Part shown: positions 12,001 to 57,989 of the stretch, piece after piece
Layout: each line of letters begins with the position of its first letter
Position numbering within the stretch: position 1 is the stretch's first letter
NCBI GenBank assembly: GCA_008632985.1
Contig: QPGO01000056.1
Span: 276,406-340,405, forward strand
DNA: 64,000 nt
Source: Psammoneis japonica
Taxonomy: Eukaryota
Direction of reading: 5' to 3'
The notes under the pieces: model-generated
The model's database searches: none
What the model was told of the DNA's origin: nothing
What the model saw: only the letters and a program-made list of their open reading frames with translations
Program-made: the position numbers and the translations under genes

Positions 12001-12129
12001 TTGGCTTTCTCTGTCCTCTTGGCACAACCCCCGTTCCACTCTGCAACTTTCTGCAATTTTTTGCTGTTGTGCTCCAGTCCTTGCCTCCACTGCCACTCTC
12101 TCTCCCACCTCCCTGGCCACTCCAGTCAA

Positions 12130-16576: not shown

Positions 16577-16847
16577 CTACTCGTACTCGAGCGCAGCGAG
16601 AGTCGAGCTAATCAAAACGCTCTGCCCACAACCAGACGTATTTTTTACACCAGGCAAAAACGCGAACTCGGCTCGTATAAATTGATGGGGATTCTCGTTT
16701 TGTTCGCAAGAGAATTACAATCTCATCAGCGTGTGCCATCTCAGACAAAAAGAGTGAGTGGTTTTGTCGTTTTCTCTCTCATTTCCTAAAAAAACCAAAC
16801 GGTCGTTCAATTGCAATGTGTTCGTTGCAGGGAAGCATCAGACGAGC

Positions 16848-19800
16848 ATGTCACACCTCCATCCAGGACGGACTTGGGAAGAAGTAGAAAATGCGGCGAC
16901 TTCTGCTCCACTCATGCCCAACCATTCGGCTGCAAGGAAGAGTGCAAATGAGAGAACTCACGAAGGACCCGAAGAATTTCCAATTGAAAAGGCAGCTGCA
17001 AGTCAAACCCACAAAGACGAAGCCGTACAAAATGCAGAAAGTTCATCGAAGATGGTTCATGATGAATTATTGACCATCAAAAAGGTAGCTGCAAGCGAGA
17101 CCGTCGAAGACAAAGCCGAGCAAGAGGTTAAAAATTCCTTTGCTGTGTCCTCGACGATGAGCCATGAACTTTTGCAGCTCTTGGAACTCTTTGAGGACAA
17201 GTCGGTTGCAGAATTAAGGATGGTTCTCAATCAACATCAAGGTGACCTAGACAGGGCAGTGGAGGCTGTGTGCAATGCTGAGTGCCAAACGGCTGGCGAC
17301 ACCTGTGAAGGGAAAAAGCAACACTCGCCAACTGTTGCCACCAAGCGAGAAAGACACGACGGAGGGAAGGCTTCTGTCAACTGCGGCAATGACAAAGGCA
17401 ATGAAGAAAAGCACTTGGACATTCCCATCGAGCCAGAGAAGGCAAGAGAAGAATTCTCAAGGGCAAATGAAGACATAGAGTCAGGGGCGTCTCAGGGCAC
17501 GCATCCCGGTGCCTTTGCTGTGCAAGAGAGAGGCATCCAGGATCGCCAGGAGGATGCAGGGACCATTGCAGCAACCATTGCGGTGACTGTGCCCCCAAGT
17601 GCCGATTCACAAGCAGTGCCTTTTCCTCCCATTGCGGCAGAGGTGGCTGAAGATCAACAAGACATTGACGTGGATGAACGCATTCGTCGTGTCTTGGCTG
17701 ATTCTGCTGTCCCAGCAGAACAGGTCACTGCTGTGGCTGCTGCCGAAACACAGGAGCAGGCAATCAAAAAGAACGCAAAGTGTCATCCAAGCAGCAAGAA
17801 GATGGTTGCAGTCTTGTTGGTCCTTGTTCTGGCAGCAGCAGCTGCTGTTGTGGCCGTGCTGTTAACAACAAAGAGCAGCAAGCCGACCGAATCATTGACA
17901 ACGATGACAGTTGTCATTCAACTGGATGACCAACCGGAAGAAACGGGTGGGAGTTGGAGACCAGCAAAGCAGTGTTTGACTTTCCTCCTGGAACTTACGC
18001 TGGGAAAGCCCGCAGACGGGTCACAGCAAAAGTTGATGCAATTCGAGGAACTGACTGCAACTTCGGAATCTTTGACACTGGGGGGAATGGAATCGTTGAT
18101 GGCTGGTACAAAATCTATGACAGCCCGGATGTGACGGATGATGAAAAAAAACTGCTTGTTGACGGATCTGGTGACTTTGAGAGTGAAGCACGCCACAGTT
18201 TCATGGTCTTTGGCGAGGAAGAAATCAAGGAAACCGTGGATTGCCCCCATGAATGCTGCATTGACAGCGATTGTGGTGACAACGAGATGTGTGCAGTGAA
18301 CAGCTGTGTCTGTCGCCATGAGTGCTGTGGCGACAGTGATTGTGGAAGCAACGAGTTTTGCTCAGACAGCAATGAGTGTTTGGCAGAATGTGAGTGCCCC
18401 AACGGCGACAATGATTGCTCTGGAAGTGATGTTTGCGTTGACTGCAAATGCACTCCAGTCTGTGTGACGAGCGATGATTGCCCTCCGGACCACGAATGTC
18501 AAGACCCTGGCGGGTGTGTTTGCGCCTTTCAGTGCTGCAGCAATGACGATTGTGGGAGCGACGAGATTTGCTCAAGCAATGCCTGTGCCTGTCGCCATGA
18601 GTGCTGCAGCAATGCTGACTGTTCCAGTGATGAGATGTGCTCGAACAACATTTGCACCTGCCGTCACGAATGTTGCAGCGACAGTGATTGCCCCCTGGAC
18701 GACGAGGAGTGCAGTGGCAATGTTTGTGCCTGCCGTCATGAATGTTGCAGTGACAGCGATTGTCCCAAGGAAGATGAGAGATGCAGCTCCAGCCGCAACA
18801 TGTGCATTTGTCGCCATGAATGTTGCAGCGACAGCGACTGCGCCAAGGAAGATGAGAGATGCAGCACCAGCCGCAATGAGTGTGTTTGTCGCCATGAGTG
18901 CTGCCACAACTCGCATTGTGATGGTGGTGCTGAGTGCAAGAACAACAAATGTGTGGCAGTGCCTGTGTGCAGCGGATGTGCTTCTGACTCAGACTGCCCC
19001 GACAGTTTAGTTTGCTTGGACTGTGAGTGCAAATGTCCTCATGAATGCTGCGATTCTGATGGGTGCTCTGGTCAGCAGCAGTGCGAGAACAATTTGTGTG
19101 TGGGCTGCATTGAGTTGTGCTTGGACTGGGAAGAATGTGAAGGAAATCAATGCAAGTGCAGAGACGATCGGTGTCAATTGGAAGGAGATGGCTTTGAGTG
19201 CCGCGACAACGAGTGTGTCTGTCCTGGTGAGTTGGAGTGCTGCCAGGACTCGCATTGTGATGGTGGTGCTGAGTGCAAGAACAACAAATGTGTGGCAGTG
19301 CCCGTGTGCAGCGGATGCGCTTCTGACTCAGACTGCCCCGACAGTTTGGTTTGCTTGGACTGTGAGTGCAAATGTCCTCATGAGTGCTGTGATTCTAACG
19401 GGTGCTCTGGGCAGCAACAGTGTGAGAACAACGTGTGTGTGGGCTGCATTGAATCGTGCTTGGACTGGGAAGAATGTGTGGGAAATCAGTGCAAGTGCAG
19501 AGATGACTGGTGTCAATACGAAGGAGATGGCTTTGAGTGCCGCGACAACGAGTGTGTCTGCCCTGGTGAGTTGGAGTGCTGCCAGGACTCCCACTGTGAC
19601 GGTGGTTCTGAGTGCAAGAACAACGAGTGTGTGCCAGTGTGCAGCGGATGCATTTCTGACTCAGATTGCTCCGGAAGTTTAGTTTGCTTGGACTGTGAGT
19701 GCAAATGTCCTCATGAGTGCTGCGATTCTGACGGGTGCTCTGGGCAGCAACAGTGTGAGAACAATGTGTGTGTGGGCTGCATTGAATCTTGCTTGGACTG

Positions 19801-20102
19801 GGAAGAATGTGTGGGAAATCAGTGCAAGTGCAGAGATGACTGGTGTCAAGACGAAGGAGATGGCTTTGAGTGCCGCGACAACGAGTGTGTCTGTCCTCAT
19901 GAATGCTGCCGCCAATCACATTGTGACGGGAGTTCTGAGTGCAAGAACAATGAATGTGCTCCTCCTTCCTGAGTGCAATGACCTGCATGATTGCGACCAC
20001 CAACAATTTTGCAGGAGCTGCAAGTGCCTCCCCTGCGAGTGTCCCAACGGAGATGCGGATTGCCCTGACGATTCTCGGTGCGATGATTGCGAATGTCGTT
20101 AA
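16848..20102 (+). CDS. Type II membrane protein: CUE-like domain, TM helix and long Cys-rich repeat ectodomain (two apparent frameshifts, ~17947 and ~19965)
   Basis: ELLQLLELFEDKSVAELRMVLNQHQGDLDRAVEAV (CUE-like); PGAFAV motif; TM VAVLLVLVLAAAAAVVAVLL; IQLDDQPEETG(W)ELE; CRHECCSDSDC repeats and 339-bp repeats starting at ~18910, 19249 and 19588. Confidence 0.75.
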
Positions 20103-20120
20103 CGTGGAGTGTTGCAGCAC

Positions 20121-20900
20121 CATTCAAAAACAACACAGACTTGGCAAGCTTGTTGTTGTGAACAACCGAAAACAGAACATGAAAGATGCAGTTGAGCAAC
20201 AAATTACATTACACAATGCATTTTGAAATCAAACCTTATTTGTTTATATTGTTCATTCTGTATCCTGCATGTACGTTTTGCATTGATGGCCTCATGAAAA
20301 GCATGCCTGTGAAAAAGACTCGTGCAAGAAACGCCAAAGCCAGCCGTCGTGGCCTAAGATGGACACAACTTTTCGAAGGAGAAAACATTCAAAAACAACA
20401 CAGACTTGGACAGCTTGTTGTTGTGAACAACCGAAAACAGAACATGAAAGGTGCAGTTGAGCAACAAATTACATTACATAATGCATTTTGAAATCAAACC
20501 TTATTTATTTGTTCATTCTGTATCCTGCATGTATGTTTTGCATTGATGACCTCATGAAAAGATGCCTGTGAAAGACTCGTGCAAGAAACGCCAAAGCCAG
20601 CCGTCGTGGCCTAAGATGGACAACTTTTCGAAGGAGAAAACATTCTTTAAAAAATACATTCTAAAGCAGCCTGAGATGAGACAGGATAATATGTGAATGG
20701 GCCGAATAAAAAGAGTCCATTGATGACCTTTCGTTGAGAATGAAAGGCTTGTTGAATGCCTGTGGCAAGACACGTGCAAGAAATTCCGAAGCCAGCCGTC
20801 GTGGCCTAAGATGGACAACTTTTCGATGGAGAATACATTCTTTAAAAATAACATTCTAAAGTAGCCTGAGATGAGACAGATTAATTACTTATGTGAATGG
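20121..20900. repeat. Nested tandem duplications downstream of the Cys-rich gene
   Basis: ~265-bp unit at 20121 and 20386; gccagccgtcgtggcctaagatggaca occurs three times (~20338, ~20596, ~20790). Confidence 0.9.
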
Positions 20901-23900: not shown

Positions 23901-25679
23901 CCGAATTGGATTTTCTTGGATGTTTTCATCCCAGGAATTTCTCTCACATTCTCTTCAAGCATATTATCTTCAGAGATAGACACGTGTTTAGTTTTCTGCA
24001 GTGTTTTTTTTGTGTCTCCCACGTGGTGTGGCTGGGCTTGTCCATTCTTCGAGGCACAGCAACACGGTCAGTTTCTATTTTGACTTTAAACTGTGGCGTC
24101 CAACAGGCATTGTTCTTTAACAATGAATCAAATAGCTATCAAATTGTTCCTGCCGCTCTTTACGGGTACTTAAGAAGAATTACAGTAATAAAAACCATTC
24201 CTTTTATTATATTTTATAACTACGAATAAGATGGAAAAACATTTTTCTTGATTGCACCACCACACTTGAATGTCTTACTCATTGAATACCTAGTACATTG
24301 CCTACGTGGACACATCAACACAAGTGACAGATGTATCCAACCACCAGGTTTTCTCATCCGAAGGTTCACCTGATGATGCATATCTTATCACAATGGCGTT
24401 CAGCGCCCACGACGGCTCAATCATTGTCATCTTGTGGTGATGAGAATAACCTTTGTAGAGCGACAGTAATAGGTAGACTTGCTTATGGTTGGCTTATGCT
24501 TCATAAAAGAGAGTGTAGAACCACACAGCAAGTAGTTCTTCCGAATATTGGCCATGGAGGCCTTAACAGTTTCCTCCCGAACGTGTTTTTTGAACATCTT
24601 CAATGGAAATAAAAATCTAAAATCATACAAGAAAATTACGCTTTTATATACGTCCCCCCATTCAATAAGTCCGTCTCTTCCGTGACGGTGTGTCTACGAG
24701 CTGTTATGTGCATTGTTGTTGTCTCTTATTGCTCTACGTGTTTCTTTGTCTCAGATGATTTATCACTTAGGATGTGGACACTAGCCTGCTCGTTCATCCC
24801 CCTAAATGTTTGGGCGATTTGGTGATAGACAGACCAACATGTCCAAAGTTCTACGTAAAGGACCAATTTTTGCGATGACTTTGCCTCTATTTAACTTCTG
24901 TCAAAGTCGGTGCCTTCCATAGCCATGAATTGGGTCCTAACGCCACTGTTCAATGCAAGTAGCATGACCCGTCATCTACTGTACATCATCTGATGTGCCT
25001 AACCCCCAAACTAAGCACTGTCGATTCGCATTTAATTTGGACATGCTTCAAAACGAATTTGATCTTCTAAGAAATGTATCTTTGAATAATAACTACATGC
25101 TTTGAATACGTAAAATGTCAAAATTAAATGAAAAATGTAGTCATTTGTAGTCACTTGGGAGGAAACAGTTAAGCCAAATGTGGTTCTACTTTGCCGTATC
25201 CTTTGCTCTAGTTGCCTTGTGGCTTGTATTTGTGGCAACACGACACAAGCACATTTTATGCCGTAGAAACGATCTGTTGTGTTCTGCAGATAAGCTAGCA
25301 TATTTCGTCGTATCTTTTACGATAGATGGCATTCGAGCAATAACATTGACTACATTGAATTTTGTGATGATTGATTGACAAAAGTTATCATAAAAGGGAT
25401 TCATGATTATGTCGGTCTTTCAATGAATTAGAGACGCACCCACTATGACAAAAGTCTATCTTAGGCTTTTTTTCGGAAAATGTTTATTCACAACCTCATT
25501 GAATGCTTTCCTTTTCTTCCTGACCTTGTCCGCTTAGTCCCACACGCAGCTATGGGTTTTCTCAGGCGATTTCAAAGACGACATTATCAATGGGTTATTA
25601 TCTCAGGCGATTTCAAAGACGACATTTTCAATGTTCAAATAAAACATTGTCAACATTATTCGACTCTCTCCTTTCGTTT

Positions 25680-27905
25680 GGCATGTTTGACTATGAAAAT
25701 GTCCATCTTAACGGATTTTTGGAAAATGCACATTTACAACGGGCAAAGCCAACCATGAAGAATTTCAGCCTGGGACAGGGGAAAAGAGATTACAACTGAC
25801 CCTAACCACCTCACATGACCCCAACCCCAACCCTCAAACGAAGACTGATGCTCACGTTCCTTTTCTGCAGCACCACATCGCACTGCTTCCTTTCAATGCT
25901 GTTCAAAACTTCAAATAAAAACATGGTCAACATTTTGCATGTTTGACTGTGAAAATGTCCATCTCAGGCGGATTTTTGGAAAATGTTTATTTGCAACGGG
26001 CAAAGCCAACCATGAAGAATTTCAGCCTGGGACAGGGGAAAAAACTTGCGGAGATCACAACTGACCCCAACATTCACATGTTTTGCACACACATTTCCAT
26101 GTGCAATCCCACAGTTTTGAGCAAAGCCACCAAAAAAAGTTTCATTTAACGAATTTGTGGGAGCAATGTGCCAGGTCTTGAAGAATGTGCCTGGCCAAGA
26201 AATGATGCACCGCAAAATTGTCTGGCAAGCCACATTGCCTGATGACTCCGCTGCGGAGCTCGCACGCAATGGGCCCAAATGTCACACAGATTCCCCACCT
26301 GCATCTGGAATGCGTCAGATGAGCGAACGAAGCTGATTGTGAGAATCTTTCAGTTGAATCATCCCCAAACTCCATCAATCAACGGCTGTGTGCACACAAG
26401 AAAATGCGACAAGCTGATGCTTCAGGGCATGACAACACAGGGTCATCACACAATGCCGCCGCATGTTCCAGCAGCTGTTCCTGGTCACACACACCACCAG
26501 GCGTGTGTGGCTGTTCCGCCGCATGTTCCAGCAGCTGTTCCTGGTCACACACACCACCAGGCGTGTGTGGCTGTTCATCATGGTGTGACTGCCAAGCGTC
26601 CACGCAACGCAATGGTGTCATGCGAGCTTGTGTGCCCTGCTTGTTTCGTTTGTCATGTTGTTGGCACACCCATTGTGGCCGTCAGTTGCGGCAATTGGCC
26701 GTCGTCAAACTTGAGGTGACTCTGCATTTTTCTGGTCTGTCAGTTGTCAAAATTGTGCGCAGTTGGCTGCCACACTTTTGTTGAACTTTCAATTGTCAAG
26801 CAAGAGAAAGAGAAAACCATCACCCCCACAGCAAGATTCATGATGCCGTGATTCTCGTCCGTTTTTCTGGTCTGTCAGCCATCAAAAAATTGTGTGCGCA
26901 AAAAAAAATTGAGATCTGCTCTGCATGATCTGCGCAGTTTCCACGCACCAACGCCATGCGAAACACACCATCATGATGACGACTTTCAGTTGAATCATCC
27001 CAAAACTCCATCCATCAATCAATGGCTGTGCACACAAGAAAATGCAGGGTTGCTTGTCTCGTTTGTCAAGTTGTTGATGTCCCCATTTTGTGGCCGTCAG
27101 TTGCGGCAATTGGCCATCGTCAAACTTGAGGTGACTCTGCATTTTTCCAGTCTGTCAGTTGTCAAAATTGTGCGCAGTTGGCTGCCACACTTTTGTTGAA
27201 CTTTCAATTGTCAAGCAAGAGAAAACCATCACCCCCACAGCAAGATTCATGATGCCGTGATTCTCGTCCACGTCCGATGCCGGCACCAGAGCTTCCGGAG
27301 CTGCTTCCTGCACAAGAGCCGCTGGAGAGCTGAATCCTCCGGAATTGTGCGTGGATTCTGAGCCTCCAGTGCTTTGTCAGAGTCTTCATCAGAGTCTTCT
27401 TGATCTGAAAGATTGTCCAAAAAACTGGGCTTGCCATGAGGTGCCGCTTCGTTTGGCATCGAACGTGCCACTGGTGTCGGCAGCAGGAGGGAGGTGCAGG
27501 AGGTGTCCTCGGATCTCGGATCAGCATCAAACGCGCCATTGGTGTCGGCAATGGGAGGTGCCAGAGGATTGGACACCTCGGTCTGCACTTGAGGAGAGAA
27601 TCAGGCTCCAAATCATGAGGTTCTGGAGGGTCGGACGTGCCACTGGTTTCGGCAAAAGGAGGTGATGCCGGAGGACCGGATGCCTCAGTGTGCACTTTGG
27701 ACTCCGCACCACAAGGTGCCAGAGGATCGGATGTGCCACTGGTTTTGGGGCAAAAGGAGGTGGTGCCGGAGGACCGGACACCTTGGTCTGCATGTCATGA
27801 GGTGCCGGAGGATCGGTTTGCACATCATGAGGTGCCGGAGGATCGGGACATGCCGCTGGTTTTGGCAAAAGGGGGTGGCTGGTGCCAGACACCTTGGTCT
27901 GCACT
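25680..27905. repeat. Cluster of local duplications and minisatellites
   Basis: ~25680-25800 / 25935-26068 duplication; 60-bp tandem at 26456-26576; ~26673-26860 / 27088-27270 duplication; atgaggtgccggaggatcgg minisatellite at ~27610-27905. Confidence 0.85.
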
Positions 27906-28208
27906 TCGAACTCCGCCCCTGTCTGAGAAGCAGGCCACCCACATTTGACAAATTGCACTCATCACTTGTGCGCAAATTTCACTTTGCACGTTGTGCTTTC
28001 TTTCTGTGCCCAAATCTTTGAGGATGGATCTTCAAACAAACTGCATCACTTGCACGCAAATTTCACTTTTGTTGCTGTGGTCTGTTTTTTGGGTCTCGCA
28101 ATTTTTGTAAAAAATGACCCGGGTTCGTTGCACCAAATCCGCTCATTTGCCAAAAACAAAATTTCAATGACAGGTCAAACTTTGTCCACTTCAAAGACAT
28201 TGCACACA

Positions 28209-29400
28209 CACACCCTGTGGATCACCCTTGTCCTCATCCAAAATGGAGGCAGGCTGTGCAACCAAAGCAACTGCTGCTGCAGCTCAGCCGAGGACAATCC
28301 TGCAGAGAATGTCCATGCTCATGCAAATGTGTGTCACGTGGGGTGTCCGGTGTCCACCCATCCACCCCTGTCCCCAAGCATGCAAGCAAAGCTGCAGTGC
28401 CTCCATTGAGGACAGTGGAGAATGCCCACACTTGTGCAAAAGTGTGTCATGTGGGGCACCCTGTCCTCAAGTGTGAAAGCAAACCTTCAGTGCCTGCATC
28501 AGTGCGGTGCACTGCCCCGCTGGCTCCCCAATTTGCAGCCACCATTGGTGCCATCCATCTTTCATCCCCAGAGCCATTTTGTCTCAACTTCTCTGGGCAG
28601 CCATGGGCTGCCATTCTGTTTTCAACTGCTGGACCCATGGCTGCACTGAGGGCCTGTGGCAGGGTTGTGAGCTGCTGAGCAAAAGTGTGCTGGGCTGACA
28701 AAAGAAATTGTGGGAACCTGTCACAAACAAAGATGACAGCCTGAAAGAAGATCTTCTGGACATGCTTGCAAAGCATGCCAAGGAGCACAACTTGCTCAAC
28801 AAAAAGGGCTGGAAAATGAGGAGAGCCAACGAGCGCAAATGCCAAGCTGAGGGCCAAGGTGGTTGAGGCAATGCAGAGCGGCTGCAGAGTGTCTTGGTGG
28901 GTGACAAAGATGACAAGCACTTGATTGGACAGCTCTTGGGTGACAAAGATGATGAGCGCTTGACCAGTCAGCTCCGGGGGCTCTGGGTGCAATTCCAAAA
29001 GCTCTGGCACCAGCATTGGGCGCGAATGAGAATCGCAGCATCACAAATCTTGCTTTGGGGGGTGGTGGTCCAGGTGACTCACAAGTGCGCAAAACTTTGT
29101 CTCAAGCTGGGTGCCATCAAAAAGAGGCGGCTGAAACTTGGGGTGCCAACAAGGTGCTTTTCCAGCTGCGGCAATGTCCAGGTTGGCACTCTTCACACAA
29201 ATGGCATCAAAGTGCTGGTGCAGACACTCGCACATGGAGAAAAACAGGTGGGAATGGAGAGCCATGGACATGCGAGGGTGGGCAATTTGCCAGCCTTGAT
29301 GCCAAAGACAAGGAGACACCAGCACCTTTCCAAAACAAAAGATCTTTGGCTCAACAAAGCTCAAGATGTTGCAGCTGATGTGGTGCACACAAGCAGCCCA
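28209..29400. repeat. ~1.19-kb dispersed repeat, copy 2
   Basis: Direct copy of 4899-6060. Confidence 0.85.
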
Positions 29401-29765
29401 AAAATGTGGCCCTGGAAACAACTTTCACCAGACTGTTTCGGCTCTTCTTGCCACACTGCAACCTCTCAGCTTTGGGCCTCTCAAATCCTCAGCCTTGACT
29501 TCGGCTTTGCCCTTTCCAACCAAACCATCTCTCCACATGCCAAACTCTTCTTCTTGGCCATCCCATTGTTGCTGACAACTCCTCTTCTTGGCCATCTGTC
29601 CACACTTTGGGCCCAGCCTTTTTCTTCTCATCCCCAAGCGCGCTCCGCGCACCTTTCCCACCACACATTTCTCCAGATCCGTCCCCTCCAATGTCATGGA
29701 CCCCCACAACTTTTAAAAAAGCAACAACAGCACACACCACACACCACACCCAACAACAAAAACAA
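29401..29765 (+). mobile_element. Possible 3' tip of another CRE-like non-LTR element
   Basis: Pyrimidine-rich, similar in style to 13000-13265, with a CA/A-rich tail; no catalytic motif seen. Confidence 0.35.
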
Positions 29766-30052
29766 GTGGTCAATGCTCCCCGCGGGCTGGCTTGCAATGT
29801 TGAAAAACCAATCGATTTGCAGACTTTCACACAGATGCTTTTAAAGGCAGAGGACAGACCTTTTTTTTTTGCTGCCATGCCGCTGGCGACTGGCGTCGCT
29901 TTGCTCGCACGACTTTTTGCAGTGATCTGATTCTAGAGACAGGCAATCAGCAGGGATGGGAGGACTTTGCTGGCGCAGTTGGTCCCTTTCCATTCCCAAG
30001 CTGGAACGGCATGGCCAGAGGGAGGGAGAGGTGGGAGTGCTTTTAGACTGTC

Positions 30053-30498
30053 TGCAACACACAGCTGCTGACAAGAGCCAATGTGTCACGGCGACGTGTT
30101 GCAGCCTTTAAATGTCTCAAGGGCGTGACAAAAACAACCTTTTGTCTGCATGCACACTGCACTGTGAATTCACAGCGGAGTGGTTCATCGCAACCATTGG
30201 GCAGGAGGCCAGGGGTTCGAAACCCTGAGCAGGAGTTGTCTGCAGCAACGTTGATCACTGTTGAACGCGTAAAACTCTGTGCAGTTCTGTGTGTTCCTTC
30301 GCACGTACCCACACTGTTCCGCCAAAACCGTGCAGTGTCAGTGCACGTTAGTAAAGAGCCGTGTGGACGCGTGACACATGGGGAGGAGTGCAACACACAG
30401 CTGCCAACAAGAGCCAATGTGTCACGGCGATGTGTTGCAGCCTTCAAATGTCACAAAGGGCGTGACAAAAACAACCTTTTGTCTGCATGCATGCTGCA
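30053..30498 (+). mobile_element. TRIM (miniature LTR element) nested in Ngaro copy 2
   Basis: TG...CA direct repeats at 30053-30161 and 30389-30498; PPT ggggaggag abutting the 3' LTR; 4-bp TSD tgtc/cgtc; absent at the equivalent site of copy 1 (~2440). Confidence 0.88.
30170..30240 (+). promoter_or_regulatory. tRNA-like internal Pol III promoter (A and B boxes)
   Basis: cAGCGGAGTGG (A box if the original was TAGCGGAGTGG) and cagggGTTCGAAAccctg T-arm hairpin/B box. Confidence 0.6.
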
Positions 30499-30898
30499 CG
30501 TCTGTTCGGCTTGCTGCTGAAGCTCTTTGGAAGAATGGGCAACAGCAGCTTGCTTCCAGATGCCAACCCAGATGTGTTCAATGGAGGTGGAGCGGGGGGT
30601 GACTTCCCGGTGCGTCATCAATGGGTGATGAGGTCATCTCCCCTTGTCGGTCTTTGTGAGGCCAGCGACTGGCGTCGCTTTGCTCGCGCGACTTCTTGCG
30701 GTGATCTGATTCTAGAGACAGGTGATTGGCAGGGATGGGAGGACTTTGCTGGCGCAGTTGGTCCCTTTCCATTCCCAAGCTGGAGCGGCATGGCCGCTCC
30801 GGCGCTGCCCACGTACACTGGTGTGGGCAGTGGCGGTGCAATTGGGTGGGTGGGTGGGTGGGCCCGGCTGGAAGGCTGAGGCGCGGCCTGTGATGGAA

Positions 30899-32053
30899 TC
30901 ACGGGTCGGCGGGGGCAAGGGGCACGTCGGCATTGAGGTGCAGGACAAATTGGCCGCCAGCCAACATGCGGGTTGCGAAATTGTGCATGACGGGTTCTGC
31001 TTGCAAGTGGAGGTGACGGAGCATCTCGTCGGAGTGCCATCGGCCTGAGAGGCGGATCACGTCGGTGTCAACATGGGCACATGGGAGGGCCATGGCACCA
31101 GCCGTGTGCAAACAGCGAGCGGAGACATCGGCGGGTGTGAAACCCAGCGCAGTGGGGCCGATTGCCAGAATTGCGGCACGTGGGATGCTGGCAATGCCGG
31201 CGGGAGAGACACGGCACCAGGTGTTGTCATGCAAGTGCACACCAAGGGGCATGTCTGGTGTGGTGCCAAAGGTGCGGAGATGTTTCACTCGACGGACAAG
31301 GGCGCGTGTCGGACAGAGGTCAGGGTGTCCGGATGGGCCAAGGCCCATGACTTTGCCGCGCATGCCATTGTTCTGTGTGGCAAAAGTGAGCGTGCCAAAG
31401 GTGGCAGTGTCGAGGTGTTCATCGGTGCAGGTGAACAAATCGAGGCAAGTGCCTCCAGCGGAGAGGCGAACATCTCCCAACCGAAAAGGAGTGGTGTCGG
31501 AAGGCGCTGCGGTGTGTTCGCCTGGCCGCAGGAGGAAGAAAAAGGCCAAAGCAGTCATGTCTGCGATGGCTTGGGTGCCCGGATGATTTGTCAGGGAGGC
31601 AGCATGGGCAATCCACAAGAGAACAGCGACGGGGACCAGTTTGACCCGGTCTGGGGGAGGATCCTCTTTCTTGTAGAAACGGATTTGGCAGCTGATGCGG
31701 AAATCCATGTTGCCTTGGAGTGTGTGCCGCGGGTCCGGGGACCCCATTGCAGCGAATGTTTGGCCAATCGACCGCAGGGCACCCTCAGTGGTGCGTGCGC
31801 GGACGGGATTGCCACGTGGGGCGATGGCGCCTGTGCGGAATCGGTGCATGAAAACTTGGAAAAAGATGACTGGGTCGTCGACATCTTGCAAGAGAGGGTC
31901 GAGGGCCAAGTCGTTACAAAAACTTCGCCAGAGGTCCCAGTGGGCATTGCTGGAGCTGGCGGAAGAAGCAGCAACGCCGTGGGCAACGGCGTGTTGCACA
32001 GCGCCGAGATCACATGGGAGCGCAGCGCGGGTGGCGGGGTCCAAAGGCACCAA
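30899..32053 (-). pseudogene. Tyrosine recombinase of Ngaro copy 2 (open frame, catalytic Tyr>His)
   Basis: LLRPGEHT and GRWHSDEMLRHLH, versus MLRYLH in copy 1. Confidence 0.88.
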
Positions 32054-33620
32054 GAGGGAGTCTGTGGATGATGAGTGTTAAAATGGTGCAAGAAGGCACA
32101 GTTGGACAAATGTTGCAAGCGAGAGGCGTCATCCGCAGCAGTGTTCAACGGTCCCGGCAAACAATCGTGGAGTGACAGGCAGCGGTGGAAACGTTGGTGG
32201 TGACCTTGGCATCAGAGGAGGGGTGCTGCGACCTTTGCAGCAGTGGTGGAGCCCTTGCGTTGACGAAAGAGAGTGCCGGTGTTGTCTGTGCGGTTGAGCA
32301 CTGTGCACTCTCGAACGTTGAAACAGTCCGCCGCGGCACAGGATTGCATGGTGCCACCGACCAACTCCAAGTCGGTGTTGGCAATGGGGCTGCGGGGATT
32401 CTCAAAGGTGGACAGTCGGTCAATGACTGCCCAGGGAAATTCATGTGCCAGACAACAGGTCCGGCATTGTGTTGTGGTCTCCGGCGGTGCGCAGTGGAGC
32501 AACGCAGCATGGTGCTGCGTGCGACCGCTGACGGCGCAGGGAGAAGGACCCCCCTGCACCATGACTGGCTGCATCATGGCAGCCTGCAACAGCAGGCAAC
32601 AGGGGGACAAGTTCTTGGACACGGGTGGGGCGGAGGTCGAGCCCGCGGCATGACAACCGAAAATCATCCAAGATGTCGTGAAAGTTGCGGGCAAGACGAA
32701 CTCGCCCATCTGGCCCAGTGTGGAGCAAGGCTTCCTGGAGTTCGGAGAACAGATTGCGAGACCCGGGAATGCCGGGCGTGAGGGATCGCAGTTCGCCAAG
32801 AAGCTTGCGCAGGTCGGCAAGCGCTGCCCGCTTGCAATGGCGGGGAAACTCTTCGCACAGCATGGTGTGGAGGCGCTCGCGGCGTCGTGGCGCAAGGCAG
32901 ATGGTCATGGACAAAGTGTCAATGATCCACCCTGGGACCTCCTTCTGCGTTGACCAAGTGGCGTCGCCTTTGCGGAGCTTTTTGACTGAGATTGGCTCCT
33001 CGCAACTGGGGTGGTCTTGGTCATCAATGGCGTGCATGATCGTGCGATGCACACTGCACAGCGATTGTTTGGAGCCTTGGGCGGCGCCGATAAAGTCATC
33101 AACATGGATGTCAACATGTTGGAGGCGCTGCCGGCGGTGGTGCGCGAGGTGTGGATCCGGCGTGTCTGGCACTGGGACAGCGACAGACGGACTCACGTCA
33201 GCAGTGACAGCGCGGTGCTTTGGTGGACGGCCATCAAGGTGAGGTTCGAGTGGGTGGTGCGGTGCCCGATGGTTGCGCACGAGCTGGCGATTGGCAATGT
33301 CGGTGACCGTCTTGGTTGCCGCACTAAATGCCGGTGGTGAGTTGGACCATCCCATGGGCAGCCGAGTGGGTGTGGCTGCTGGGGGAGGTTCTCCCGGAAG
33401 GCGGGGAAAAACCACACCTGGTGTGGGTGCTTGCTCTGGTGCCAGCTGCATGCAGTGGAAGCCATCAGCCAGGTCAATCTTCATGAGACAGACGCGGCCT
33501 TTGTTTGGGTTGGTGAGGAGAATGCGCCGAAGGGTGCGGTCCAATGTGCACCCGAACTGCATGGATTCCATCGGCATGTTTGGCTGTGTGGAAGGGTCAA
33601 CACCGCACTGTTTGTTGCAG
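31950..33620 (-). pseudogene. RT / RNase H of Ngaro copy 2
   Basis: MESMQFG, KIDLADGFH, RLPMGWSNSPPAF, HVDIHVDDFIG (YxDD mutated to HVDD), HDAASHGAGG. Confidence 0.9.
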
Positions 33621-35570
33621 ACGATGGAATTGTTGCCTGGCGCATTTACACGGCTTGGTCCAGGCGGTGACTGCACAGAGGTCTGCGAACGTGGCATCGT
33701 GGGCGGTTGAAGGACAGACGTTGGCAGGTCGAGACGCCAATGGCAGGCGCCTTGTGTGGCCTCAGCCACCACTGGGAGCGGTTGGAATGGGACAGGGTTT
33801 TGTGAGTGCATCTGCGCTTGAAACCAATGGCACATCTTCACCTGCGCGTGATGTTGCAGGTCCGCTGGTGACGTCGGGTGCGACACCACTTGCGCCGCCA
33901 AATCGTTGGCGCAGACATCCATGGACTGGCGCACGTGAGTCAACCACTGCACCAGTGGATGTGCTGCGCCAAAGGCTGCAGAGAGGACGATGCGCAACCT
34001 GTCGAAAGACTGTTGAACCACCTGGATCGCAGTGGCCACCATGGCATTGTCGGGGGCTTCCAACACTTGCGTGTCCGCCAGCGAAGGTGTGCCATTGCCT
34101 CCATGAATCTGTTGATGCACAGAGTTGCGACAGGCGGTCTGCTCGGCTTGTTCCGGTGCAGTGATGCGAACAAAAAAGGGGTGATTCCCTGGGTTAACTC
34201 GTCCTTGTTGTGCCGGCGAAGTCGACTTGGGTGAGTTTTGTGATCAGATTTGTGGTCACCGGCACATTGAAGTGCACGTGGTGTGCTTGCCATTGCTCAT
34301 TGATTGCATTCTGGATGGTGGCGATTCGACCGGTCTTGGGAGAGGCTGCCAGTTGCGCCCAGAGTGGTGGCAAGTTGGCTTCATGATGCACCTGGCACAA
34401 ACGCATGAGTTTGGCTGTGCCAAACTCCCCGCAGAACTCCGTCGGTGTTTTGCCGCGCGATGCCGCCTGTTGGCACGCTTCCGCATCTAAACGTTGTTGG
34501 CACTGCTCTGCTGTCAAGCTCTCAATGGCCGTGACCACTGGTTCAAACTGGCGCGGTTGTGGCAGTTGGCCCACGCGGTTCGGAAGATCACGCTGCACCA
34601 TCGCGTCGAAGAAACGATTTGGCGCTTCGTTGGGTGGTTGCGCCATCATTGGCCATGCTTGCGCTGCTTCAGATGTGTGTTGGTCCCACACTGTCGTGCA
34701 GCACGCCACTTTCAAAAAATCCAGAAGTGGCCTGCATTCGTTGACCGCATTGGCAGCTGTGACAGCTCCCAGCACCTGGGCAAATGCTTGCTTCGGCATC
34801 AATGGCGTTGAAAGCAAGAGATTAACACACGCGAATGGCACCATCATGGTGTTCCGCGTCCTGACCTCAACAGCGTCTGGGTCGTTTGGCGCACTTGTGG
34901 ATGCAATCCTTCCGGGGTTGCAACAATGTGGGCTTGCAGCGCAGCGTCAGTCGGCACCCATGTGCCGTGTTGGGCCAACTGGAATGCATCATTAGCGACG
35001 GGTGCAAGTTGGTGTTGTCCCATCGTCAGGTCGCCCATGAGCACAAAAAATTGTCCGTCCCACGGTTGTGCTGGTCCTGCTGCCGTGATCGGGCACTGGG
35101 TTGCGTGATGGAGCACCTGCATGACTCCAATGTCGTTGCCTCCTGGCACCCAGCAGTGCTGCACAAGAGCCATGGGCAAATTGTGCAAAGAAGCTGCCCC
35201 AACTTGGGTCCTCAGCACGTTGGGGTCACAGCGTGACTGTCCTTGTAGTGGGACCATGAAGTCCTGCATGATTTCCACACAGTTGCCGGCGCATGGATCC
35301 TTGATGGCATGCGAGCAGCAATCCCAACAAGTGTGGATTGCTGCTGGTGGCGCTGGAACGCCCTGCCCCGCGGGACCTGCTGGCGGTGCGGGTGGCACTT
35401 GGGGTGGCGGCTGTTGTGGTGGCGCTCCAGGGGCTTGTCCCACCTGCACTGCGGCTGGTTGTGCCGCTGCTCCTGGCACTGCCGGCACCACTGAATGCAC
35501 CGGTGCTGGGGCACGTTCTGGGCATTGTTGGCCGCCGGAATCGGTTGTTGATTTTGTCTGCCCCCAGGTT
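33620..35570 (-). pseudogene. gag-like ORF1 of Ngaro copy 2, frameshifted
   Basis: Lies upstream of RT; Pro/Ala/Gln-rich N-terminus; AKLMRLCQVHHEANLPPLWAQLA. Confidence 0.6.
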
Positions 35571-36707
35571 GTTGTGCCGCTGCAGCGGCGTCCGGCAGCA
35601 GATTGTTTCCGATGTTTCCGTCTTGATTCATGACGTGTGACGATCCTGCAAGCTTTGTGGATGCAGCGGCGGATGGCATCCTCTGCCAAACACAGCGGCA
35701 CTTCCAGACCATCCACTTGGCTTGCTGCTGAAGCTCTTCGGAAGAATGAGCAACAGCAGCTTGCTTCCAGATGCCAACTTAGATGCGTTCAATGGAGGCA
35801 GAGCGGGGGGTGACTTCCCGGTGCATCATCAACGGGTGATGAGGTCATCTCCCCTTGTCGGTCTTTGCCGGTGTGAGGCCAGCAGCCAAGGGGGCGGGCG
35901 GGCGTGTGTGGTCACTGTAAATGCGCAGAAAATAAATGCGCAGAGAATCGCTGCTGCGGCACTGTGCCACTCTCTCCACCAGAGCAGAGAGCAGGGCTGC
36001 CGCACCGTCACACCCAAAATTCTACCCAAGCAGCATTATTCTACTGGAAAGTGGAATTCTCGTATGTAAAAATGTCAATACGGTGTTGGTATTTTCTAAA
36101 AAGATCTACCGTACATCCACTGTTTATTCCACTCAGGTAGAAGGCACAGTAGAATTTTCGGAGCCAAAAATTCTACCCTGCGCGCCCCTTTCGCGCGATC
36201 TAAACAGTCTGTCCTTGGTGCGTGATGTCGAATGCGACGGGAGGAACAAAAAAAATACTCGAAAGTTCTACTCGTCTCAATGCGGCATCTCAACCATGAG
36301 CGTTGCCGTATGCAACCCCGGCAACTGCACCAATGCCAACTGCATCTATGGTGGCATGGCAAGCAGCACTCACAGGCGTCCTGAGTGCATTAGAAACCTT
36401 CACACTCCCTGTGGGAAAGCAGACGAACGACTTGCACTACTTTCAACTTTGACAAGCTCTAAAGCACCTATTTGAGATTACTGTTGTGAATTTTATATTT
36501 AAATATTACTAAACAATTGCATTAGCCTAAGGAACAATTAGCACCTCATTGCACTTCCACCAGCTTGAGAAGAAAACAAGCTGCTCCCTAGCGCGGAAGG
36601 CACGACCAAGGGTTGCTGCCGTTGATCTTTAAATAGATTGTTCCGCATCCTTGGCTTGAGATACATTTTTTTATAACTATTTGGTCCGTATTCACCTTGG
36701 CACCTAT

Positions 36708-37450
36708 GCTGCAATGGGTGCCGAGTGGGCCTGTCAGCGACGGCGAGACAGGAGAAACTGTGAGGAAAAAACTGCGCCACACTTGACAATCATCAAACGC
36801 ACAAAACATGAGATGTGTACAACAAACAAACATTTCCATCACATGTTCGACATTGTTGTTAGCAAATTTTGTTGTTCTTACCTTTGCAGTCCGAAGCCGA
36901 GCTTGATTATGAATGCTACTGTGTCAGACGCGGCAGTCCTGGTCAGTGTCCTCTCTGGGAGCAAAAGTCGCGAAACACCCAAGAGGTGAGGAGCAGCAAC
37001 AAATCCACTGCAAGCATCATTTTTTTCCATAGTCATATTAATCCGTAGCGGTGTTCATGCCGTCGCTGCAATGGGTGCCGGGTAGACCTATGAGCGACCA
37101 CAAAACAATAGAAAAAGTGAGAGAAAAGCTGTGCCTCAGAAAAAAGCATCAAACGCCCAAAATACGGGCTTTGTAATGAGTGCAAACACAACCATACGAT
37201 TTTTAAAGCTAAGTTTAGCAAGCATTGGCATTCTCACCTTTGTCCTCAAATCACCGAGTAGAAATATCAACGCTACTGTTACCGACGCGGTGGCGCCGCG
37301 TGTTTCCTCTCTTGCAGCAAAAGTCATCAAACACCCAAAAGGCAAGGGTAAGCAAAAAATCCAAAGCAAGCATCATTTTTTTCATAGTCTCATTAGTCAA
37401 TGTTGGCATTCATACCTTTGCTGTAATGGGTACCGAGTAGAACTACGGGC
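36708..37450. repeat. Degenerate ~356-bp tandem repeat (two units plus the start of a third)
   Basis: gctg(c/t)aatgggt(g/a)ccg at 36708, 37065 and 37420; gcaagcatcatttttt...catagtc at ~37010 and ~37366. Confidence 0.75.
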
Positions 37451-37975
37451 GTTCAAAGGCCATGGTCAAGGTGACGGCGCGGTGTTTTTTGAGCGTCGCT
37501 CGCTTCGTCTTGGAGTTTTTTTTCGGGTTCAACTCCTCGCGTGGGGTTTGCGTAGGTTGATTACTAGCACGTAGCTTCTCTACTGATGGCTACGGGTTGG
37601 TCTTCTTCCCCGTAGGATGAGTACTACTCTCTACAGGGTAGAACTGAGGGTAGATTTTTTTGGATGTATTGGCCCGGTACTTCTACTCTCTAGCTAGCTC
37701 TACTCTAGCTAGTAGCTACTAGCTAGAGAGAGTAGAGGTTATGGTAGCGGTAGAGGGTTCCTACTGAGTAAATTTACTACCCGTTTTGGTCGCCACAATT
37801 CTCCAAAAAAAGAAGAGAAAATGCGGAGAGTCTGGCAACATGTCGTAGCCCTAAATCCTCCTATCCTGCTGTGTTCAAAGACAAGCTTCAAACGCCAGAG
37901 TAGCAGACAAAGTGTATTTCCTGTCACACCAATCACTAAAAGTCTCACTCACAATAATCAAGGTCGGTGGCAGAA

Positions 37976-44002: not shown

Positions 44003-47000
44003 CTACCGGTACGTCTCCGTCGTAACAGCCATCACCACTGAGGGCTTGGTAAAAAGGTCGCCGTGCTTTCTCTCAATCATTGTAACTTTTCTTCGTGCTC
44101 CAAACTCAGAATAATGTTGAATCGCCTGTTGTAATCTATAGACTCCTTCGTCCTTATCCCCACCCTCATCAAGTAGATATTCTCCTAGAACTTCCGAGAA
44201 CAAGCCAGCATCGAGCAAAAAAACCTCCACGCACTGCAAGGATTATGGCGACTTGGTAGCTCTTGATGGCGGCGAAGCTCTTACCCCGGAGAGCGGCAAA
44301 TTCCGCATCAAAGAATGCATCATAATGAGATACGTTGGGATTTCCCTTGTCTATCAAATCCTTGATACGCTTTCGAATAGATAGAGCAATCTTGCGGTAA
44401 GGCTTCTTGCCAGTCTGGCGCGCAGCTATGAAGGAAGATACTCCTTTTGTGATCACTTCAAACAGGCTGGTGGTGAATAATCCGGGGTGAGATTTCAAGG
44501 TATCATTGGGTCCGTGTACTACTGCAAGCTTCGCACAATCCTCGTGCTCTCCGTACAGGGTTCGTATATACATTTCCCAAATACAAGAATGCGCCTTATA
44601 GAACGGGTCTTCCAATAACCAAGCTGCATGGTTTACCTCGGTGCAATGGTCTCCCACCAAACAGAGAGGGTTCGTTTTGGTACGACCGGCCAGATTCATG
44701 AGCATTTGATAGTTCACAACGAAACTATGGTAAACCACAGCTTGGTTCAAGTCCTTCATTTGCGGCATGTAAGTCTCTATGTCAGCAATACACAAGTCCA
44801 AGGAAAAGCTGGTCAAATACCGCATCTGGCAAAACAAATAAATATCCCAACCGGCACTCTCCGTGTCGCCCGAGCATAGTCCAGCCTCGTAACCTCGTTG
44901 CAAAGGCTTCAGTTGGTCGCGCATTGGTTGCGTCCAGACGACTCCAAAGTTGTGGGCGACGAGACGGATCCTCGACTCGACCAGCGGCGATACCTGAGGA
45001 ATAAGCTTGATGGCCGTCTGTGCGAACTTAGAACCCAGTTGTAAATCGCCTATAATGCCAGCAAAAATAAGTCCCACAGTAGTCAATGCTACAGGGGTCA
45101 AATCATTCCTGCCATATTTCCGAGTCCAATCCATTGTGCGAAATAGGACTAGTGCCATGAGATCATCATGCGAAAGAAAGAGATACACAGACAGACGATC
45201 CATCAAATGCAACAATTTGATCCTGGTGGGATCGTTTTCCACTGGCAGGGCCAAAATATTCTCCAGCAAGCCCCTCTTGGCAGCTCTCTTTATCTTCATA
45301 ATATTGGTCAGTGTGCGGAGAGACTGCATTGTTTTACTACGGGGAAAGTGAATGCCAAACATTTTCAGAAGCAGCATCGTCTCTTTTCGCGGCTTCTTCC
45401 ATGTGACCTCGGTTAGCAAGACTATCCAGCCAAGTCGTGTAGATGCGCAACTTGTCTTCGACAGGACTATCCGTTTGTCGTATAACAGCTTGGCAATACT
45501 CTTCCATCCTGTTAGCATTTCCTAGGCAGCTTTCGGCTTCGGCGCCAGTCGAGAAAAGATCTATAGCGATGTCGTAGTGCTTCGTAAAGGCTGCATCACC
45601 CAAGAGAGCAATTCCGAATGATGCGTAGTTGCTAGCTGCTTCAAAGGCCGACACGGTCATAGCTTTGGTGCTTGCCCGACCATTCAGCTGCGCAAGTTCG
45701 ACTCGTTGAGCATTATCTGTGGGTTGGTTGCCCTCATTCAACAGATTTACAACAACAAAGATAGCAGATTCCAAGTCCTCAGGCCGCAAAGAATCCAAAA
45801 GAGTCTGACCCACAGCCTGTTGAAAAGCAAGACGTTCTTCCTCGCTAGCAATCAACAATGAGGCCGCTTCTTCGACCTTGTCATGCGCGAATACGTATCT
45901 TCCTTCCTCCGCTGCCACAAGATAGCCCTCAGTGACCAATGACTCTAGCGCACTTTTGGTTTCAGTATCACAACTTTCAGTGTCACAAGCAGTCTCTTCG
46001 CGACCCCCGGGGTCTCTTTTTAGTTCTTTCAATAACAAGAATAAGGTCTTTTCATCAAACGAAGCACCCAAACAAGCAGCTAGACGAAGAATCTGACTTT
46101 GGTGGCTCGACAGATCTTGCATTTTCTGCAACAACAAGTCAACAACGTTTTCACACGCCTTGGTCTTGAGCTCAATTTCATGCTCATCCCAGGTCCATCT
46201 AAGTGTACCAAAATTATATTGAAGCAACTGCTCGCGATGTAGCAAACTGAGGAAATGATAGAGAAAGAAGACATTTCCTAGAGTGCGTTTTTGGCACAGC
46301 GATGCAAGACCAATAGTGCGAGAGTCTGAAGTGGACAAGATGTCGTTGACGAACTGGTGAACCGCCTCAAACTCAAGGTTTCCCACCTCAATCTCTTGCA
46401 AGGCAAATGCACCACCCTTCCGAGAACAGAGTCGCCAGTCACGTATGCTGCTTGACAGCAAATGCGCATCGTTTACCTCGTTTGACCGGTAGATGCCAAT
46501 CATTAGCATTTGTGTGTCGCGGTCCATCAAAATGGCCTCCAATAGATCAAGCGATGGTACATCTCCCCATTGTAAGTCATCCAAGACCAAAACAAGAGGA
46601 TGAAACTGCTTGACAATGACTCTCATGAAGCGACAAAAGGCGTAGTTAAGACGATGTTTGTTGTCCTTTGGATTGTGATTGGAATGCATGCTGGCGTCAG
46701 CGCCACACAAGATTTCCTCCAAAATGGGAAATACTCGCAGTAGCACTTCCAGTTCAGCACCGAGAGTTTCTTCAAGTGACGTCCGAATAGCGTGGAAAGT
46801 ATCAGCGGATTCGTGTTCAAGAGACAAGATATGTGCACAAATGGCTCCACACAAGGTCATCAGGGCCGAGTAGGGTTCATTGTTTCTCAAATTGGTATCA
46901 AATTTGCCTTCTACGTACAAACCACCCTGCTTGTTGACAGGTACCTGTAGGGTATGGGCTAGAGCAGTCTTTCCCGTACCCGAATAACCGGCCAACAGAA

Positions 47001-47313
47001 CCAATTGTTTCTGTTGCTTGCTTGTTTCAAGCACTTCGTTGAGTTGCTTGATTTCCGTATCGCGTCCGTAGAGCCCGGTGTTGCCAAAATTGAGTTGATT
47101 AATGGTGAAGCCCTCAAGTGTGTTGCTTTTGCGACCTGATGGTTTGCGAGACAGGCGGCACAGTCCTTTTGAAGAATCGAGGCTAGTCGTAGTCGGGCCA
47201 AACTCTTCTGACAATGTACCGACTGAGAAGTCCTGACTGATGATTTCTTCTTGGTTGTCTAGAATGGTTTGCTCCGGCGAGGCAACACCCCTGCTTGAAT
47301 CAACCCTTGTCAT
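44003..47313 (-). CDS. STAND-class AAA ATPase with a C-terminal helical/TPR-like region (two +1 homopolymer frameshifts)
   Basis: LYGRDTE, Walker A GYSGTGKT, Walker B LVLVLDDLQW, YRSNEV, GNVFF, FAHDKVEEAA, C-terminal GNPNVSHYDAFFDAE. Frames rejoin by removing one base at ~45387 and ~44220. Confidence 0.85.
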
Positions 47314-57985: not shown

Positions 57986-57989
57986 CACT

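Follow-up and report, generated by a model that had tools for sequence, protein, structure and literature searches.

A Ngaro-type retrotransposon stripped of its catalytic tyrosines in Psammoneis japonica, probably by domain-wise hypermutation of TpA

The DNA analysed here, which we refer to as the window, is a stretch of 64,000 nucleotides of Psammoneis japonica (assembly GCA_008632985.1, contig QPGO01000056.1, positions 276,406 to 340,405 of the forward strand). At 29886-35867 its minus strand carries a dead tyrosine-recombinase retrotransposon of the Ngaro type, recognised by the order of its repeats and by homologues of its reverse transcriptase (RT) and recombinase; the dinucleotide TA (TpA) is nearly absent from it (TpA/ApT 0.08 and GC 0.59 in a composition count). 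We call this element copy 2; copy 1, on the plus strand at 1-2611, is cut by the start of the window and aligns to copy 2 at 90% identity (90.2% across 2454 columns). Two repeat modules occur twice in copy 2, all on the minus strand: A1 (35719-35867), at the 5' end, is 94% identical to A2 (30508-30656), and B1 (30665-30795) is 94% identical to B2 (29886-30016), at the 3' end. The order on the minus strand is A1, coding region, B1, A2, B2, an A-pol-B-A-B arrangement by which Ngaro elements are defined in the available text of PMC3783388. Between A2 and B2, at 30017-30507, contig word depth reveals the insertion of a very high-copy tandem repeat of ~331 nt; its summed word depth is 66,000-72,000, compared with 400-1000 in the remaining element, and its joints go back 331/332 nt. 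This repeat, at a depth ~100x that of the element, looks like a major satellite of the genome. It has no counterpart in copy 1, where B1, A2 and B2 are contiguous at 2149-2611.

The RT frame of copy 2 (32441-34243, minus strand), located by its homologues and motif positions, runs for 600 codons from stop to stop with 0 Tyr. The first-pass annotation had described a Tyr-free open reading frame (ORF) of 559 amino acids at 32441-34120; the absence of Tyr stands, but position 34120 lacks an ATG (the first one occurs at 34042), and the segment lies inside the 600-codon frame. Alignment to pol homologues places the C-terminal, putatively RNase H-like part of pol at 31594-32904 on the same strand, out of the RT frame and with an in-frame TGA at 32212-32214. 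A separate overlapping ORF of 392 codons with 1 Tyr (30899-32077, minus strand) follows pol and is a putative tyrosine recombinase, on the evidence of homologues and a predicted Cre-like fold. Ngaro retrotransposons (available text of PMC3783388) have an RNase H domain and lack the methyltransferase of DIRS elements; copy 2 shares with them a pol ORF that contains an RT and a separate tyrosine-recombinase ORF that overlaps it, and the C-terminal part of its pol may correspond to the RNase H. Copy 2 differs from them in being dead and in carrying the satellite insertion, and no Pfam or PDB sequence match was obtained for its recombinase or for the intact homologues examined.

Against the RVT_1 profile, the RT frame of this mutated copy scored 17.6 bits (E = 0.0033), under the cut-off of 29.6 bits, and intact RT homologues, at 24-25 bits, likewise fell under it. 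Among 8000 candidates scored, 207 were homologues of the RT frame at E <= 0.001, the best with 59% identity; some are annotated as RT or have a precomputed PF00078 assignment, and the DD of the YxDD motif is invariant. Chaetoceros is the sole organism-named relative among the RT matches listed. The 392-codon ORF had 313 homologues, the best with 68% identity. This ORF and two intact relatives gave no Pfam match, and a PDB profile search stayed at chance level (E 0.4). An AlphaFold2 model built from a 31-row alignment (mean predicted local distance difference test score 79) matched chains of Cre recombinase with a top E of 1.1e-7 and template modelling scores of 0.56-0.72, and the 33 matches of the fold search at E <= 0.001 were Cre, Xer or integrases. 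It is on this predicted Cre-like fold that we call the ORF a tyrosine recombinase, and the Tyr of its GRW..(8)..Y motif, present in 29 of 30 homologues, would be the equivalent of Cre Tyr324. Neither RNase H nor the DIRS methyltransferase has a Pfam match in copy 2; the C-terminal part of pol aligns to homologues.

Both copies are broken. Compared with copy 1, copy 2 lacks single nucleotides at two places (near 32553 and 32433), and copy 1 lacks them at three places compared with copy 2; each contains an in-frame TGA (32212-32214 in copy 2, 639-641 in copy 1) where the other copy has CGA. Since both stops are TGA opposite CGA, they come from CpG decay and not from the TpA process described below. 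The element belongs to a multi-copy family, as 2429 contigs of run X1 align to 28500-37500 at >=82% identity. The contigs placed on the window show 873 variable places, among which transitions predominate (A>G 167, T>C 177, C>T 163 and G>A 206, with 13-26 for each transversion); these counts are uninformative on polarity.

The first-pass annotation had proposed that the catalytic tyrosines of the RT and the recombinase are erased. To compare these positions, we aligned the proteins with 23 of the 120 RT homologues listed and 30 of the 120 recombinase homologues listed, mostly from the tops of the lists with a few named or long-contig entries. In the RT, the motif KIDLADGFH (33455-33481, minus strand) ends in His (codon 33455-33457) in a column where all 23 homologues have the Tyr of GFY. 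The motif HVDIHVDD (33095-33118) replaces YVDxYVDD, and its YxDD residue, the His at 33104-33106, falls in a column of 13 Tyr, 10 Phe and 0 His among the 23; the loss is well supported there and less so at the first His of the motif, where only 11 of 23 homologues have Tyr. In the recombinase, MLRHLH of copy 2 (31007-31024) corresponds to MLRYLH of copy 1 (1925-1942) at a column with 29 Tyr and 1 Cys among the 30 homologues, and the nucleophile Tyr codon of copy 2 is CAC (His). The reciprocal case is RFHKKED in copy 1 (1270-1290), for which copy 2 has RFYKKED (31661-31681) at a column with Tyr in 27 of 30. No homologue has His at the YxDD position (0/23), at GFY (0/23) or at the nucleophile (0/30), in agreement with the proposal that TA is the ancestral state. 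We also sought active-looking relatives that naturally carry His or Cys at these positions, and we found none with His; the lone nucleophile Cys belongs to the homologue P0122, which is itself depleted in Tyr.

P0122 is a metagenomic recombinase homologue with 67% identity to the ORF. It has Cys, His and Cys at three of five conserved Tyr columns, the nucleophile included, and its Tyr content of 0.51% is the lowest among the 120 recombinase homologues listed. Because P0122 comes from another data source and shows Tyr replaced by His and Cys, the same signature exists outside the window.

The depletion of Tyr in copy 2 is far from what its relatives show. Tyr makes up 0.74-3.3% (median 2.0%) of the 120 RT homologues listed, and a run of 600 residues would be free of Tyr with a probability of 0.012 at the lowest homologue frequency and of 5e-6 at the median. 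At columns conserved in at least 70% of the homologues, Tyr is retained in 1 of 8 cases, whereas the other residues taken together are retained in 327 of 409 (Fisher p = 1.1e-4), and Arg is the second least retained residue (30/46). The four conserved Tyr columns in the C-terminal part of pol read Cys, Cys, His and Cys in copy 2. On the sense strand of this copy, 7 conserved Tyr columns now show His (T>C) and 3 show Cys (A>G).

The two copies have not lost the same tyrosines in the same way. Conserved Tyr columns spanned by both copies show the same product in some cases (Cys/Cys, Cys/Cys, His/His), different products of a TAY codon (Y, a pyrimidine) in others (Cys/His, His/Cys, Cys/His), and in two cases a Tyr kept by one copy only (His/Tyr, Tyr/His). 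Such mixed Tyr/His/Cys columns match what independent hits in two copies would be predicted to leave. The earlier proposal that the copies were hit independently thus agrees with three columns that differ as His and Cys and two that keep Tyr in one copy. Its further claim that the process inactivates retroelement enzymes is borne out in that catalytic Tyr is lost, but the frameshifts and the CGA>TGA stops mean that Tyr loss is not the sole lesion.

To establish the direction of change at the level of DNA, we sorted aligned pyrimidine-purine dinucleotides into TA, CA, TG and CG, with AT, GT, AC and GC as the control class. The copies differ by 234 substitutions, of which 206 are transitions, and 163 of the 234 columns are linked to TA or CG. 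There are 34 doubles in which one copy has CA and the other TG, whereas the corresponding GT-versus-AC doubles of the control class number 2 and TA is never paired with CG. This excess of CA/TG doubles must go back to a shared ancestor one step away from both, namely TA or CG. Twenty-two of the doubles lie in aligned coding columns, and 12 of these are informative, with a TA or CG ancestor fitting the homologue consensus at >=50%; 10 of the 12 fit TA (e.g. CTA/TTA for Leu and TAC for Tyr) and 2 fit CG. The polarised single changes are TA>CA in 3 cases with none in reverse, CG>CA in 7, CG>TG in 3 and CA>CG in 1.

On these dinucleotide counts, two directional processes appear to converge on CA and TG: a dominant and nearly saturated loss of TpA, and ordinary CpG decay. 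The second process (CpG>TpG/CpA alongside the loss of TpA) had gone unremarked in the first-pass annotation. In the 2.45 kb aligned between the copies, 5 TA remain in copy 2 and 16 in copy 1. The observed/expected ratio of TA is 0.03-0.10 across 31001-36000; in the two copies it is 0.03-0.15, compared with 0.82-0.98 for CG. A rough estimate puts the loss of TpA in the two copies at ~9x the rate of CpG loss, as ~86% of the inferred TA sites would have been lost per copy against ~19% of the CG sites. TA-free blocks elsewhere (3001-9000, 28001-29000, 48001-50000 and 55001-58000) are often nearly free of CpG as well (CG observed/expected 0.08-0.3, CA+TG 1.7-2.0), and since the Ngaro copies keep their CG, the loss of TpA seems to run well ahead of that of CpG.

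The time at which the changes occurred can be approached through a second element, a long terminal repeat (LTR) retrotransposon on the minus strand at 57990-62715. Its LTRs (57990-58356 and 62348-62715; 367 nt) have TG..CA ends, and CACT stands on both flanks of the element. The pair differs at 21 columns, of which 18 are simple TpA changes and 3 belong to one complex site (T-AAA/TGGGA), with 0 differences elsewhere and 0 at CpG. In the simple changes, TpA of the left LTR faces TpG of the right LTR 9 times and CpA 9 times, and TA counts are 29 and 10 while CG counts are 21 and 21. Within the element, the density of TA falls in one step at ~60250, from a TA-normal half with TpA/ApT of 0.81, like host genes, to a TA-poor half with 0.22; the (CpA+TpG)/(ApC+GpT) ratio of the TA-bearing half is 1.03. 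LTRs that differ only at TpA, together with a step inside the element, indicate that the change took place after integration, on both strands equally, and along the border of a domain and not along the borders of the element. The element also contains an RT_RNaseH fragment (59328-59834, minus strand), and its internal frames are broken.

The modules of copy 2 can be read in the same manner. A1 and A2 differ by CG/CA and CG/TG singles, 1 CA/TG double and 1 TA/TG site, and the differences between B1 and B2 include 3 CA/TG doubles, which gives 4 such doubles in total within a single copy. The modules would have been alike when the element inserted, provided that each transposition regenerates them in the manner of LTRs. 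Taken together, the module pairs, the TA-poor flanks and the LTR pair lend indirect support to the earlier claim that the hits came after insertion.

The TA-poor state extends over domains that are not bounded by the elements. Six TA-poor blocks cover 37.85 of the 64 kb (59%), with TA observed/expected ratios of 0.05-0.19 and with both CA and TG at 1.35-1.84. The enrichment of these two dinucleotides in TA-poor DNA is 1.6-1.8-fold. TA positions delimit the domain that holds copy 2 at 25651-36000 (ratio 0.07) and the domain that holds copy 1 at 1-13150 (0.06), the latter being also CpG-poor (0.08-0.23) from 3 to 9 kb. The domain of copy 2 runs 4.2 kb past the 3' end of the element and stops within ~50-150 nt of its 5' end, and there is no TA between 26147 and 28108, nor between 28108 and 29714. 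Non-coding flanks are as TA-free as the elements. In affected DNA, TpA/ApT is 0.05-0.22 and GC is above that of the neighbours, compared with TpA/ApT of 0.64-0.85 in host genes (0.6-0.85 in TA-normal blocks). A repeat pair unrelated to the Ngaro copies (4899-6060 and 28209-29400) has 13 CA/TG doubles and 0 GT/AC doubles. The two members of this pair are direct repeats with 90% identity that share 0 TA and only 2 CG.

The stop codons follow the same division of the window. TAA and TAG together number 245 against 1610 TGA in the TA-poor blocks, and 1217 against 972 in the remaining window, and ORFs of >=110 codons occur at 3.54 per kb in the TA-poor blocks versus 1.41 elsewhere. Because a process that acts on TpA destroys TAA and TAG and makes no new stops, a long Tyr-free frame would be a ghost and no sign of integrity. 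A Pfam scan of 92 ORFs from TA-poor and other blocks gave 1 match only, the RT_RNaseH fragment of the LTR element.

We consider it probable that domain-wise TpA>CpA/TpG hypermutation of integrated DNA, together with slower CpG decay, explains the dead Ngaro copy. After integration of the element, hypermutation at the DNA level would turn TpA into CpA or TpG (T>C or A>G, on either strand), while the slower decay of CpG to TpG or CpA would proceed in parallel. Since Tyr is encoded by TAY only, each hit on a Tyr codon would yield His (CAY) or Cys (TGY), and in this way the RT would have been deprived of its YxDD and GFY tyrosines, and the recombinase of its nucleophile Tyr. TAG would be destroyed and TAA converted to CAA or TGA, while a sense codon would never become a stop, so that long Tyr-free ghost frames would be left behind and GC would be raised. 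By analogy, we infer only that a deaminase stands behind the signature: an enzyme of the TadA/ADAT kind, or another deaminase, may be directed to silenced domains and there deaminate adenine in a 5'-T-A context, whichever DNA strand carries it. Modification of thymine of the 5-hydroxymethyluracil or base-J type, N6-methyladenine (6mA) and ultraviolet TpA photoproducts were also considered, and none fits domain-limited, strand-symmetric A>G/T>C changes better than adenine deamination. We incline, though only slightly, to the broader view that diatom-like stramenopiles own an active defence that deaminates adenine at TpA on both strands, acts across silenced domains while ignoring element borders, works faster than methyl-CpG decay and is able to rewrite more than half of a repeat-rich region.

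Several observations weigh against the explanation by TpA hypermutation. All of it is drawn from the sequence of one 64-kb window, and run X1, perhaps the source sample of the assembly, would then be no independent check on the base calls. By itself the LTR pair gives no polarity, the step in TA at ~60250 would look the same if a chimeric assembly had joined two copies there, and the 4-nt match CACT is weak support for a single insertion. Part of the CA/TG excess does not come from TpA, as 2 of the 12 informative doubles fit CG and 10 of the 14 polarised singles are CpG decay. Three conserved Tyr columns are not simple TpA products, i.e. RT210 (Tyr>Asn, AAC), RT175 (Tyr>Thr) and YR80 (Tyr>Phe). 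Untouched repeats exist, in a high-depth stretch at 36.0-37.5 kb and in half of the LTR element, and the TA paucity of the block 16651-20250, which holds an ORF with Cys-rich repeats, may be compositional.

Other explanations have to account for the same patterns. The TA loss could be an artefact of sequencing or assembly, with modified TpA in silent chromatin miscalled as C or G in long reads, or with copies misjoined. Long-read callers err at modified motifs, and the step at ~60250 could be a switch between copies. However, 539 contigs of run X1, the possible source sample, match at >=99%, one of them a piece of 609 nt that covers 29371-29979 and shows 2 differences; moreover, outcomes vary by site (His or Cys), a few TAs survive and P0122 shows the same Tyr>His/Cys pattern. 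The equivalent result in Bigelowiella natans, described below, is reported from Illumina data (10.64898/2026.01.13.699255, available text), and we regard an artefact as highly improbable. Less improbable, and still very unlikely, is editing of RNA or cDNA before integration, in which an ADAR-like A-to-I enzyme or a cDNA deaminase acts and its edits are fixed by reverse transcription. The element does replicate through RNA, its many diverged copies are evident from the contigs, and ADARs prefer U ahead of the edited A (10.64898/2026.01.13.699255, available text). Editing of the sense RNA, on the other hand, yields sense A>G only, and here T>C is at least as common; the loss of TA extends to flanks outside the element and to unrelated repeats; and both the modules inside one copy, which differ by CA/TG doubles, and the LTRs of one insertion, with their 18 TpA sites, speak against it.

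A further alternative is CpG decay alone, in which deamination of methyl-cytosine would have turned ancestral CG into CA on one side and into TG on the other. Such decay is indeed active in this DNA: CG>CA and CG>TG outnumber CA>CG, both in-frame stops are CGA>TGA, Arg is second only to Tyr in its losses, and the older blocks have CG observed/expected ratios of 0.08-0.3. It is unable, however, to remove TA or Tyr codons, and it is contradicted by the TA ancestry of 10 of the 12 informative doubles, by the high CG and low TA of the Ngaro copies and by 18 TpA sites against 0 CpG sites in the LTR pair, which makes it extremely improbable as the sole cause. The opposite polarity, as in fungal repeat-induced point mutation (RIP), would take the TA-free state as the original one and have TA arise from CpA by C>T and from TpG by G>A. 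Pairwise differences alone, those of the LTR pair included, allow either direction, but the protein outgroup sets Tyr and CTA/TTA Leu as ancestral, the TA-bearing half of the LTR element is ordinary (0.81; 1.03) and not RIP-like while it is the TA-free state (0.05-0.22) that deviates, and the affected DNA is richer in GC and not in AT; we give this reading next to no weight. Close to negligible, too, is the chance of a native composition, in which the family avoids TA (through nuclease evasion or codon bias) and tolerates His and Cys. TpA is mildly under-represented in most genomes, and P0122 is without Tyr at >=3 of 5 conserved recombinase columns. Yet different Tyr have been lost in two copies that are both broken by frameshifts and stops, Tyr is >=0.74% in 119 of the 120 recombinase homologues and in 120 of the 120 RT homologues listed, and TA is missing from the non-coding flanks to the same degree.

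The rest of the window contains further genes and repeats. Host-type genes all lie in TA-normal stretches: an ORF for a STAND/AAA_16 NTPase (45337-47367), a mitochondrial carrier (51885-52814) and a DUF2358 protein (53681-54313), all on the minus strand. The mitochondrial-carrier gene is intronless, and among its 120 matches listed 8 are named by organism, all of them diatoms with 54-57% identity, while the best unnamed match has 68%. This single gene would place the host among ochrophyte algae, probably as a diatom. Adjoining the 5' end of copy 2, the stretch 36000-37500 has a normal TA content although it is multi-copy, with a word depth of 1200-1600, and a contig of 287 nt with a depth of 584 agrees with it at all letters but one; this repeat escaped the TpA process. 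At 17930-19972 on the plus strand, inside the TA-poor block 16651-20250, lies an open frame of 680 codons with Cys-rich repeats (C-x-C-R-H-E-C-C-x-D-S-D-C), only 4 Tyr and no Pfam match, which could be a real gene with a compositional paucity of TA or a hypermutated gene.

Hypermutation of TpA is a process of a known kind, first reported in 2026; new here are the host lineage, retrotransposons and anonymous repeats as targets, near saturation, the coupling to CpG decay and the consequence for proteins. If our explanation is true, the window represents a second and distant host after one chlorarachniophyte, which would make TpA editing a candidate for a widespread algal genome defence. On the broader view of an active defence in diatom-like stramenopiles, and taken with Bigelowiella, it would be a defence that is old or has repeatedly evolved in the SAR supergroup (stramenopiles, alveolates and Rhizaria). 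The process takes Tyr out of proteins, the catalytic residues of RT and recombinase among them, and creates no stops in doing so; in this sense it is a mirror image of RIP. It also carries warnings for the annotation of such DNA: TA-free DNA is rich in long false ORFs, ages derived from LTR or copy divergence are badly inflated, and profile searches fail on the mutated proteins. The broader view, if true, would further point to a natural DNA adenine deaminase with two-base specificity. No natural enzyme of this activity is known to have been at hand when TadA was evolved into adenine base editors, and for this reason the enzyme behind the signature would be of direct biotechnological interest.

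Compared with known systems, methyl-CpG decay is active in the same blocks and has the same products, CA and TG, and differs in its pace, which by the rough estimate given above is ~9x slower than that of the TpA process in the two copies. RIP in ascomycete fungi is similar in that dinucleotide-specific transitions at the DNA level kill repeats in place, so that copies diverge and their apparent age is inflated. Its direction is the opposite one: RIP changes CpA to TpA (C>T), raises TA, lowers GC and makes TAA and TAG stops, whereas here TA is destroyed and GC goes up. The TpA excess and AT-rich products typical of RIP are not seen, with TpA/ApT at 0.05-0.22, a higher GC and the opposite polarity. 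A further difference from RIP is that the main target in B. natans is single-copy (10.64898/2026.01.13.699255, available text). Hyper-editing by animal ADAR and mutation by APOBEC resemble the present case as deaminase-driven, clustered transitions in retroelements, and the 5' U preference of ADAR fits the TA context. They act on RNA or cDNA and on one strand, whereas the changes here affect both strands equally, after integration and with the flanks included; instead of sense A>G confined to the element, we find sense T>C at least as frequently, and changes in the flanks and the LTR pair.

The closest parallel is the chlorarachniophyte B. natans, and beyond the preprint that describes it (Mettrop et al., bioRxiv 10.64898/2026.01.13.699255) a full-text literature search found no report of a TpA process in diatoms or elsewhere. 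According to the available text of the preprint, 231 of 302 nuclear point mutations in mutation-accumulation lines fell in one integrated nucleocytoplasmic large DNA virus (NCLDV) and one virophage, and 230 of these 231 were A>G or T>C, all those on TpA; the de novo rate was raised ~1000-fold in these lines. TpA-depleted coding sequences were enriched for RT and DDE domains (Pfam), 124 clusters of TpA-low windows were found, and an ADAT2-like DNA adenine deaminase was proposed (10.64898/2026.01.13.699255). The terms CpG, tyrosine and retrotransposon are absent from the main text of the preprint as available (10.64898/2026.01.13.699255). The host differs, since among the matches listed the named matches of the host gene are from diatoms only, and so do the targets (NCLDV and virophage there, retrotransposons and anonymous repeats here). 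The extent differs as well, with a Rho of 0.45 for the NCLDV and near saturation here (observed/expected 0.00-0.1, 59% of the window), and mutations were measured de novo there, whereas here the signature is read from the sequence alone. In both cases the transitions are TpA>CpA/TpG only, they affect both strands, and they fall in bounded stretches of foreign or selfish DNA that gain CpA and TpG; when the LTR pair is examined for the B. natans type of spectrum, 18 of its 18 simple differences are TpA versus TpG or CpA, split 9:9 between the strands.

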